64,000 bases of DNA from Escherichia coli (GTDB lineage: Bacteria > Pseudomonadota > Gammaproteobacteria > Enterobacterales > Enterobacteriaceae), in NCBI RefSeq assembly GCF_030013595.1, contig NZ_CP122768.1. The stretch is one strand, 5' to 3'. Positions 35,041-38,000 of this stretch are shown one piece after another (position 1 is the stretch's first letter; every line of letters starts with the position of its first letter). Position numbers: made by a program.

Positions 35041-38000
35041 TTAATGGCGGAGCAAGGAACATCGCCACAATTGCAACCCGGAGAGACTACCAGATGGGAC
35101 GCAAGCTTGCTGGCAGTCTCATGAAAGAACAGGGGCTGGTCAGCTGTCAGCCGTTGACCCTCCGGTACAGGCATGGCAGTCATGAACTTGTAGCTATCCT
35201 AAGAACTTGAAGGGCGCTTAGCTGTGACACAGCTAAATCAAGTATGGTGACGTGACCTATATCTGGACTGGTAAACGATGGGGATACCCGCTTACGCGAG
35301 AGCAATAAGTGGCTGGCCACCATTCTCGATACAAAACTCTGCTGAATAGCAGCGATTTTCCCAGCGTGGTGCGTCTTTTGCATTTTACTGGTTCTGAGTT
35401 ATCAATTATCTGTTCACTAATGACTACTCTAAAAAGTTGTATCAATTTAAGTGATATAGGGAGTCCGGAGATTCACCCTTTTTGGTGATGAAGTTAACAA
35501 TACCGCCAATTGCCTGTGAACCGTACAGTACGGAATATGGACCTTTCACTACCTCAACACGCTCCAGCGCAGACTCATCTATCAACAGTCCCACACCATA
35601 ATTATCTCCGGCGCGCTGATAAGTTACCTCCTGACCATCAATGAGAATTAAAACACGGGAGGATGCTTCGCCACGAATGCGGATTTGTTTACGGCCTGCC
35701 AAGGAGTTGTCTGTTATCTCTACTCCGGGGATGTCCTGCAAATTATCGGCTATGGAGGCATTGGTGGAGTTCTGCAATGTTTGTTGGTCAATAACCTGTA
35801 TAGTCGCCGGGCTTTCCCAAAGGTTGCTTGCCGAACGATTCGTGGTCACGACGAGCGTCTCTTCGTTGCTGATTTTTGTTTCTGAAGAAGTTGCGGTTGC
35901 AGTAGAAACTATCCCAGAAATGCATAATGACAGAGTGGAAAGGATATAAATTCGACAAGGTATATTATATAACATTTCATCCCTCATTAATACAAAGCAC
36001 AAATGATTGCTGTAATGATAATTATTTTCATTTATGTTCTCATATATCTATAATTATTGTCATCTTCATAAATTGTAAATATCAAACATTTTTGACCTTA
36101 ATCATGTTTTTTGATAGATATTTTACGACTGAACATATCCGTCGTTTCCTCTGACTCGTGTCAGTCGGTCTCTGGTTGTATCCACGGACCGCACTCTTGA
36201 CATAAGAGTGCGGTCCGTGGAAAACGGAGTTGAAAAAATGGTGTCTGAAAGAAGGTACCATCATTGTGATGACAAATACTTTGGCGTGGATAATGTAATT
36301 AATTGCTGAAATTGACCGTATATGCGGTAAGACTCATATCAGTATCAGGTCCGGTTAATTGCTGATACTAATATAAACTTTTTACAAAAGGATGAATGCA
36401 GAAGGTTACTCTAATGGCCAGAGTGATGACAATGATGGTCAGACGTTGACCTGCAGAAACTGCATTTTAATTGGTCTATAAAGTCTGCAAGAGGAATCAG
36501 GGTCAGATCAGTGAGTCTTATCGCGGCCCGAAGCTATGACTGAAAGAAGGCTGGATACAGAATTGCAACAATTTGGCAATGTCAGAACACAGAAGCTTTG
36601 CAAGCAGGTGAAAGGTTATGTCTAGCAAAAGGAGTATATCAGAATATATCTACTGATGTACAAAACACAACAATAGCTTCATGATATATAAATACGTGAT
36701 GACGAGTGGTACTCCGCATGGTTATTTAACTTCTCAGCACCACTAATGATCCTGAGCAACTTCGTATTTGGGCCATTACCATGGAGTAGAAAGCTGTGTC
36801 TGAGAATGCAGAATTTGAGAAAAGAATTCGCTTTCTTGGAGAGCTTCTGAAAATGGCACGCTAACAACGTTTTGTTAAAAAATGTGAATCACTTGCCGGG
36901 GCTGCATTTTCTATTCGAGGAGAATGTTGACGTAGATATTACAGAAATCTCAGCGCATCAGGATAAACTGCTACCTTAGGTCAACCACCAAAAGAAAATA
37001 CAATACGTCCAGTTTGTATGCCTTTAATAACACATCTTCTAAATGTTGAAGAATTATCCCGCCTGCTGAAGAACGTTGCTCTGAGTGTGATAAACCTTTT
37101 TATTCTTGATGATGTCAGCGAGAAGATGGAATATATCCCCGACTGGGTCGTGGTTACCCGGTTAAACATCTGGTGGCGCTAATAAATCTGGCAAGTCACA
37201 TTCTGTTGAATGCTGTGACAGTGCCTTACCGAGAGAGCGAAATTGTGGTGTTCTAGTGCATAGTCGCCACCATTCCGGATAATTCTATTACGTTGTTTTA
37301 CAAGTTCTTTTACAGCGCAGATCTGTCGCTGACGTTGAATCAATAGCCTGGATTTCAGAACACAATGCCCGTTTGCTGGTTGTTCCGGCAGTAGCATTAA
37401 TTCATTATCTGAATGAAATGTGTCAATCCACAGAAACCGCTGTCAATGACGCATTTTGTCGGACGTTAACACGAGAAAGTCTGGCTATTCCGTAATGCCA
37501 TCTTATTTCGTAATGGATTGAGAATGCTGGATTTTTAATTATATTACGCGCAGTATTAATCGCGTAAATGTTTTGCGGTCAGCAACGGTGGGGGATCCAT
37601 TGTTCTGTTCAATGAATACCATCATACAATTGAATCAGGAGTCGGTATGATGATTTTGGTGACGGGGGGCGCACGGAGCGGGAAGAGTCGCCACGCAGAG
37701 GCGCTTATTGGGGACTCTTCACAGGTTCTGTATATCGCCACCTCGCAAATCCTTGATGACGAGATGGCTGCACGGATAGAACATCATCGGCAAGGCCGTC
37801 CGGCGCACTGGCGCACGGTGGAGCGTTGGCAACATCTTGATGAATTAATTCATGCAGACATTAACCCGCATGAAGCTGTGTTGCTGGAATGCGTTACCAC
37901 AATGGTGACTAATCTGTTGTTTGATTATGGCGGCGATAAAGACCCTGATGAATGGGATTATCAGGCGATGGAACAGGCGATTAATGCTGAGATTCAGTCG

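Follow-up and report, generated by a model that had tools for sequence, protein, structure and literature searches.

A perfect hairpin among decayed insertion sequences upstream of Escherichia coli cobU, a probable by-product of gene decay

Within the 64,000-nucleotide stretch of Escherichia coli chromosome analysed here (contig NZ_CP122768.1; hereafter the window, to whose numbering positions refer), the DNA between a truncated TonB-dependent receptor gene and cobU (start at 37647, followed by cobS, cobT, ldtA and a tRNA gene) contains a perfect palindrome at 36181-36221. Our analysis suggests that this hairpin is probably a by-product of decay, without a dedicated function, in the remains of an IS110/IS1111-type RNA-guided transposase gene that is annotated as yoeH in K-12. 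It appears to be dispensable.

Results

The initial annotation, made from the sequence alone, had pointed to a perfect inverted repeat with a 17-bp stem at 36182..36220. A repeat search finds it to be real and 1 bp longer on each side, with arms of 18 nt each (36181-36198, TCCACGGACCGCACTCTT, and 36204-36221, AAGAGTGCGGTCCGTGGA) that are 100% complementary and enclose the 5-nt loop GACAT. It is the longest perfect hairpin of the 64-kb window, where no second copy is detected with up to 3 mismatches allowed (0/100 shuffles matching), and from base composition perfect stems of 18 bp or more are expected ~5.6e-6 times per 64 kb, or 4e-4 times per 5 Mb. The 41-nt hairpin RNA is predicted to fold with −35.8 kcal/mol on the plus strand and −35.3 kcal/mol on the minus strand, while the 121-nt context of the hairpin yields z = −7.3 and −6.4 against shuffled sequences. 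The earlier remark that no T-run follows the stem, and that it is unlikely to be a simple terminator, is borne out on both strands: downstream of the stem come AAAACGGAG on the plus strand, where an A-run follows, and TACAACCAG on the minus strand, where a T-run precedes the stem instead, and a terminator scan of the window did not call the hairpin. Rfam 15 has no match in the interval 36003-37646 at gathering thresholds; the sub-threshold matches are to generic hairpins, none scoring above 22 bits where the cut-offs are 39-90.

The sequence that contains the palindrome was resolved by a sensitive blastn search against plasmids and by aligning the elements so retrieved pairwise with blastn. 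Positions 36317-36603 match positions 3001-3296 of an E. coli plasmid sequence (L005) with 67.7% identity (E 8e-20), in a region comprising the 3′ end and the right non-coding end of an element which itself interrupts another IS66 copy. This element measures 1427 bp and has subterminal inverted repeats of 12 bp (ATGAACGCATCC/GGATGCGTTCAT), and its gene is followed by ~270 bp of non-coding DNA; its transposase carries the Pfam domains DEDD_Tnp_IS110 and Transposase_20 and scores 333 bits with the NCBIfam model 'IS110 family RNA-guided transposase'. At the protein level (tblastn), 36191-36349 is 49% identical to residues 285-337 of this transposase (E 1.6e-8) and 47% identical (E 1e-7) to that of a second intact relative, located on an E. 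coli chromosome (L033), whose non-coding region shows 72.7% identity (H174/L033). The transposase homology spans 53 codons and ends with ..HISIR. In IS1111-type elements the 3′ non-coding region encodes a seekRNA that guides the choice of target, and the seekRNAs located by experiment map 3′ of the transposase stop codon (PMC11187229). The layout of the L005 gene and its 3′ non-coding region therefore marks it as IS1111-type, with the seekRNA region 3′ of the gene.

What the window retains of this ISEc11-like type of element is the last ~55 transposase codons and ~240 bp of the 3′ non-coding region, collinear with both intact relatives. It differs from them in having neither the DEDD nor the Transposase_20 domain (the match covers residues 285-337 only and starts after Transposase_20), no left end, and no subterminal inverted repeats, IS66 tnpB sequence beginning at ~36600 before the right repeat is reached. 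The right end stops ~20 bp short of the subterminal repeat, and the 5′ 85% of the element is gone. Judged by its sequence, the yoeH remnant is a fragment and not a member of the IS110/IS1111 family capable of function. A conserved stem (CAGTATCAG/CTGATACTG) is present at 36336-36374, at the 3′ non-coding remnant, and the non-coding region of the three homologues has predicted helices that include 11 pairs changed on both sides, a weak signal with so few sequences.

No closer relative came to light. E. coli genomes hold no element 80-95% identical to 36222-36600, all matches being either to the orthologous locus (at least 95%) or to distant active elements (60-80%, 151 records). The repaired peptide has no closer protein among 5.8e9 clustered proteins, in a word-indexed search, or among 1.84e9 representatives, searched exhaustively; the phmmer search of the latter returned an ISEc11-like fragment (P0002, E 4.5e-4), and another candidate (P0001) was set aside as a chance match from a contig that looks eukaryotic. 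Across 100,044 species genomes, a conserved motif of the non-coding region matched only a truncated remnant in Serratia marcescens (L007); the E. coli genome that represents the species in GTDB was not among the matches. None of the loci contains GTGAAAATACTG, the target reported for ISEc11, and the identity of L005 with ISEc11 itself could not be confirmed. The two intact relatives are themselves placed inside other insertion sequences (IS), L005 1888-3314 within an IS66 tnpC gene and L033 ~490-1920 splitting an IS3-family transposase gene, which fits RNA-guided targeting of conserved IS sequences.

The palindrome lies directly after the segment that corresponds to the Transposase_20 match (residues 210-285) and 134 nt (36222-36355) before the transposase stop codon. 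Translated in the frame of the remnant it gives PRTALLT*ECGPW (cca cgg acc gca ctc ttg aca taa gag tgc ggt ccg tgg), with a stop codon carried by the loop. The window sequence ..YPRTALLT*ECGPWKTELKK.. faces ..ALLTKEPGPWITELKK.. in the relatives, which read ..ARAAALLTKEPGPW.. opposite PRTALLT*ECGPW. Supported homology (tblastn) ends at 36191, within the left arm; possible extensions to the left of 36181 ('DRYFTTEHI', 'HIRRFL') were discarded as not statistically supported. On these alignments, decayed transposase codons make up the loop, the whole right arm and at least the inner part of the left arm. Being inside codons, upstream of the stop codon and outside the seekRNA-type region, the hairpin does not have the position of a seekRNA or bridge RNA.

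The nearest relatives (L005, L033 and L007), at 68-73% DNA identity, have no inverted repeat at the equivalent site, where by hand count 8-9 of 17-18 positions are complementary. In one MAFFT alignment the window is gapped at the left arm by 27 nt, in frame (YLRT[LFIHGARAA]ALLT against YPRT-ALLT); a four-sequence MAFFT run gives a gap of 10 nt there instead. Positions at which the window differs from every relative number 5-7/18 in the left arm and 0-2/18 in the right arm, a hand count from ambiguous alignments and only marginally significant. All of those left-arm differences create complementarity, for example the change of tta/ttg ctg to ctc ttg opposite aagag.

We surveyed 5426 complete E. 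coli genomes by megablast. Some part of the interval is found in 5403/5426, at one locus per genome and with widely variable left end-points; the part proximal to cobU is present in all 5403 of these, the hairpin or part of it in 2755/5426, and the full-length hairpin in 2211. The hairpin is single-copy, since an apparent occurrence in 'two places' per genome is the palindrome matching itself on opposite strands at the same coordinates. A metagenome scan for the arm core identified 21 loci, of which 20 are the same E. coli locus with flanks 98.4-99.9% identical, three of them with IS3 in the arm; the remaining locus (L029) contains an unrelated palindrome.

The ~540 genomes (2755 minus 2211) in which the hairpin is incomplete are of a type (L003) where the end of an IS3 abuts 36189, inside the left arm (36188/36189), and beyond the IS3 the DNA is different. 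In further genomes a deletion runs from inside IS3 to 36232, or a different IS3-family element sits at 36143. Genomes whose match starts at 36143 or 36188 were considered as less-deleted ancestral states, which was rejected: they are IS3-family insertions with deletions. More generally the interval behaves as a sink for insertions and deletions (L003, L004, L032, L016), K-12 having IS5 and IS2, and strain SHP24 IS1. The fossil non-coding region (36358-36600) is kept in most genomes that hold the locus.

A common variant of the palindrome is a C>T change at 36192, found in 440 genomes with no compensating change. On the plus strand the variant keeps a G-U pair (−33.8 kcal/mol), and on the minus strand it opens the stem (−28.6 vs −35.3 kcal/mol). 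Comparison with strain U15A by counting shows ~10/640 flank positions and 1/41 hairpin positions to differ. The hairpin is conserved no better than its flanks. The perfect form is common to K-12, O157:H7, Nissle and SMS-3-5, and hence predates much of the diversification of the species; at 1-2% divergence no selection is needed for this.

A constitutive RpoD promoter with the hexamers TTTTCA/TATAAT has been listed for yoeH by Genomic SELEX (systematic evolution of ligands by exponential enrichment), with H-NS nearby, and a cobUST promoter is listed there with the same hexamers as in the window, TTGAGA-16-TATATT (PMC3946193). A sense yoeH transcript and an antisense RNA of 150-200 nt have been described in K-12, the latter terminated by Rho at iRAP#6850 and showing up only when RNase III is mutated (PMC6847712). 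The yoeH region of K-12 is thus reported to be transcribed on both strands (PMC3946193, PMC6847712), and RNA covers the hairpin. The dead guide-RNA gene, lying downstream of the K-12 sigma-70 promoter, may still be transcribed.

Other features of the interval and of the window

The interval had been described as poor in open reading frames (ORFs) and made up of broken frames consistent with eroded genes. Indeed, none of the ORFs within 36003-37646 exceeds 75 aa and stops crowd all six frames, and the eroded genes can now be named:

35442..35975, minus strand: 5′ fragment of a TonB-dependent receptor gene (K-12 yoeA); annotated start at 35975, ORF list reaching 36002.
36011..36029, no strand: Fur-box-like sequence in the receptor promoter region, 15/19 against GATAATGATAATCATTATC, its function suggested by the consensus only.
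36025..36054, plus strand: sigma-70 promoter-like sequence TTTTCA-18-TATAAT directed at the hairpin (consensus scan, 10/12).
36181..36221, no strand: the perfect palindrome, equivalent to NC_000913.3 2,068,389-2,068,429.
36191..36357, plus strand: decayed C-terminal tail of an IS110/IS1111-type DEDD RNA-guided transposase with two internal stops (yoeH being 36191-36349, and the stop codon of the family 36355-36357).
36358..36600, plus strand: remnant of an IS1111-type 3′ non-coding region, the seekRNA-encoding part (blastn and alignments).
36600..36717, plus strand: remnant of an IS66-family tnpB 3′ end and of the tnpB-tnpC spacer (blastn to L006; weak tblastn match to the TnpB C-terminus at 36622-36675).
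36718..37161, plus strand: N-terminal remnant of an IS66-family tnpC with several stops (tblastn to TnpC; yoeG, annotated to 37250).
37155..37343, plus strand: internal fragment of an IS4-family transposase, overlapping yeeH (pseudogene in the Prokaryotic Genome Annotation Pipeline, PGAP; NCBIfam NF033592, E 4.7e-5, profile positions 137-191 of 332).
37352..37495, plus strand: C-terminal remnant of a cobalamin-biosynthesis gene that once preceded cobU (PGAP 'cobalamin biosynthesis protein, missing N-terminus' in several genomes).
37518..37545, plus strand: cobUST promoter-like sequence TTGAGA-16-TATATT (scan).

The IS66-family remnant retains tnpB and tnpC homology in the canonical order. Positions 36603-37154 are 71% identical (blastn, E 8e-77) to an intact element (L006), over the 3′ end of its tnpB and the 5′ part of its tnpC, and 36718-37161 is 47% identical to TnpC residues 1-151 (tblastn, E 2e-25); neither tnpA nor the terminal repeats were found for this remnant, which lies on the right of the hairpin. 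A reading of 37155-37343 as a continuation of IS66 tnpC was rejected, the fragment matching the IS4-family model. A hidden Markov model search with the 47-aa peptide of the cobalamin gene remnant gave no match; from the order of the Salmonella cob operon, we take the remnant to be cbiP. Just before cobU, PGAP names only the IS4-family fragment and the cobalamin remnant, and Pfam has no match to X-masked three-frame translations of the interval. At the other boundary, a PGAP 'TonB-dependent receptor plug domain' coding sequence in two other loci (L001/L002) ends 28 nt before window position 36003, where MG1655 annotates yoeA.

The MG1655 record, in window positions, has yoeH at 36191-36349, yoeG at 36718-37250 and yeeH at ~37257-37343, with an IS5H between yeeH and yoeG. 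The expectation that K-12 carries IS5 and pseudogenes between cobU and yoeA therefore holds. This end of the cryptic prophage CP4-44, nearest to cobU, is the same locus as in the window with the same sequence, the hairpin overlapping the 5′ end of yoeH, and differs by the IS5H, absent from the window, and by an IS2 in yoeA. The K-12 annotation rows give no product names and leave the palindrome unmarked. The interval is already known in K-12 as annotated pseudogene and insertion-sequence debris, and is very probably a graveyard of nested mobile-element fragments beside the remnant of a cob operon.

Between the receptor fragment and the hairpin, a second Fur-box-like sequence lies at 36049 (14/19), and the Fur-box-like sequences in 36011-36054 overlap promoter-like sites that diverge towards the heme-receptor fragment and yoeH. 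In the U15A lineage, a T>A change improves the Fur-like box to TATTATC. Further debris lies to the left of the receptor fragment, at 32773-33470 and 34175-35400 (ORF list). It probably includes an IS1 copy (two ORFs), a short minus-strand ORF (34175-34291) like the C-terminus of an IS66 transposase, and broken IS3-family orfA/orfB-like frames, which appear to truncate the receptor gene near 35442. Within the tnpC remnant and beyond it, 36973-37256 is 100% identical over 284 bp to MG065683.1, an unannotated 2504-bp record entitled 'Campylobacter phage B14'; the match probably reflects E. coli DNA in that record.

Elsewhere in the window a second perfect hairpin (22337-22376; 17-bp arms TTCATCACCGATATTCA / TGAATATCGGTGATGAA, 6-nt loop, no T-run) is situated between the convergent ORFs 20724-22277 (plus strand) and 22599-23348 (minus strand), and a perfect 14-bp palindrome with a 1-nt spacer (CAATGAGGGTTGCC / GGCAACCCTCATTG) occurs at 7530-7558. 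A full-length Rfam match to the IS102 small RNA (253 bits) covers 18385-18588 on the minus strand, which we take to be the IsrC locus of CP4-44. Four tRNA genes, at 41079, 43486, 45307 and 59693, have identical Rfam scores of 72.6 bits; the orthologue of the one at 41079, beside ldtA, is annotated as tRNA-Asn in other strains. A fifth tRNA of 87 nt lies at 60757.

Discussion

The perfect symmetry of a hairpin made of decayed transposase codons has to be accounted for. We propose that a templated event in this lineage produced it, the sequence of the left arm being replaced by the complement of the right, either through a quasi-palindrome template switch or by fold-back copying at a truncation or deletion junction. 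The event would have occurred at or after inactivation of the gene, with neutral drift since. Quasi-palindrome template switching, by which imperfect inverted repeats become perfect during replication, is part of E. coli mutagenesis. The present case would resemble it in that a perfect repeat is found where relatives are only partly complementary, with lineage-specific changes that concentrate in one arm and all raise complementarity, and with a short indel; it is unlike it in that the event is deduced here from only three distant relatives. For this specific templated origin, as distinct from the general role of decay, the sequence comparison leaves us with about an even chance.

Several observations weigh against our interpretation. 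The active ancestor of the element may already have carried the palindrome, as no close intact relative is at hand. The alignment to the left of the loop is ambiguous, and the two MAFFT runs disagree on the gap; the asymmetry between the arms (0-2 vs 5-7 of 18) reaches marginal significance only. The perfect form is shared by strains as different as K-12, O157:H7, Nissle and SMS-3-5, both strands are transcribed in K-12 (PMC3946193, PMC6847712), and in plus-strand RNA a G-U pair survives the C>T change, just as a model of a conserved RNA structure would predict.

The last two points also speak for the alternative that the hairpin is a functional structured RNA element, a selected processing or stability signal (an RNase III site or a stem protecting a 3′ end) in the yoeH sense or antisense transcript, which might also insulate the divergent heme-receptor promoter. 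Its very stable fold on both strands (~−35 kcal/mol) would suit such a role, as would the sigma-70 promoter directed at it from ~125 nt upstream and listed for yoeH (PMC3946193), the sense transcript, and the Rho-ended antisense RNA seen only in the rnc mutant (PMC6847712). However, the papers attribute the sensitivity to RNase III to pairing between sense and antisense RNA, and the hairpin is missing from about half of the E. coli genomes and split by IS3 in several hundred. The common C>T change breaks the minus-strand stem (−28.6 vs −35.3 kcal/mol), no compensatory change accompanies it, and neither an excess of conservation over the flanks nor an Rfam match speaks for selection. We consider a selected RNA element unlikely. 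The hairpin would rather have incidental effects at the RNA level, as a substrate for RNase III or as a 3′-end block for the Rho-terminated antisense RNA; such effects are probable because K-12 transcribes both strands, and they are probably incidental in the sense that the cell does not depend on them.

The initial annotation suggested a protein-binding palindrome or a structured RNA element. Neither a dedicated binding site nor a conserved RNA element is supported, the sequence being decayed codons, missing in three relatives and in about half of the genomes, and without an Rfam match. The annotation had also named what would speak against such a role, namely a palindrome that is unique, not conserved in related genomes and not transcribed. 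Uniqueness holds and conservation is only that of the flanks, whereas transcripts on both strands have been reported (PMC3946193, PMC6847712).

It is quite improbable that the hairpin was a native feature of the ancestral IS110/IS1111-type element, serving as an mRNA or DNA hairpin in its expression or in the production of the downstream guide RNA. It does lie within the element, 134 nt upstream of the stop codon and the 3′ non-coding region, both arms make sense as codons (PRTALL / ECGPW), and there is no close relative to exclude the idea. Yet no inverted repeat occupies this place in three relatives that share the architecture, and mapped seekRNAs are found downstream of the stop codon (PMC11187229). 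Moreover, the loop contains a stop codon, and the window is gapped here by 10 or 27 nt, the in-frame 27-nt version dropping nine codons after the Transposase_20 segment.

A site acting at the DNA level, whether a protein-binding palindrome or a cruciform (an operator, a recombination site or a preferred IS target), would explain the perfect dyad symmetry. It could also be invoked for the IS3 in the left arm at 36188/36189, the IS3-family element at 36143 and the IS5, IS1 and IS2 nearby in other strains. Against this, each of the IS junctions looks like one inherited event with a far-side deletion and not like repeated independent targeting, and the whole interval, not the hairpin specifically, is the IS sink. 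The palindrome exists as a single copy without a partner site and without an adjacent intact regulator or recombinase gene. To our knowledge, arms of 18 bp are also far longer than those of known operators. We regard a DNA-level site as very improbable.

An intrinsic terminator or a repeat of the REP/BIME type (repetitive extragenic palindrome/bacterial interspersed mosaic element) has practically no likelihood: the perfect, G+C-rich stem, its short loop and a setting free of intact genes recall a terminator, but no U-tract follows the stem on either strand, the 18-bp stem is much longer than usual and the sequence derives from coding DNA, and the REP/BIME-like copies anticipated earlier are refuted by copy number, with one locus per genome in 5426 genomes and 20/21 metagenome matches at this same locus.

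There is a slim chance that the transcript from the yoeH promoter, which would contain both the palindrome and the fossil seekRNA-type region, is cut by RNase III to release a stable, co-opted RNA. If this were true, such an RNA could guide or titrate incoming IS110-family RNA-guided transposases in trans, or tune the divergent, iron-regulated heme-receptor gene.

Returning to the hairpin as a by-product of decay, its importance for biology at large is little. For E. coli, the analysis gives yoeH and the ~240 bp that follow it an identity, that of a fossil IS1111-type RNA-guided transposase with its guide-RNA region, which explains why this pseudogene has structure and yields transcripts from both strands. 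The hairpin itself is a natural candidate for a palindrome perfected by templated mutation in neutrally evolving DNA, and its persistence in thousands of genomes is a caution against inferring function from perfect symmetry.

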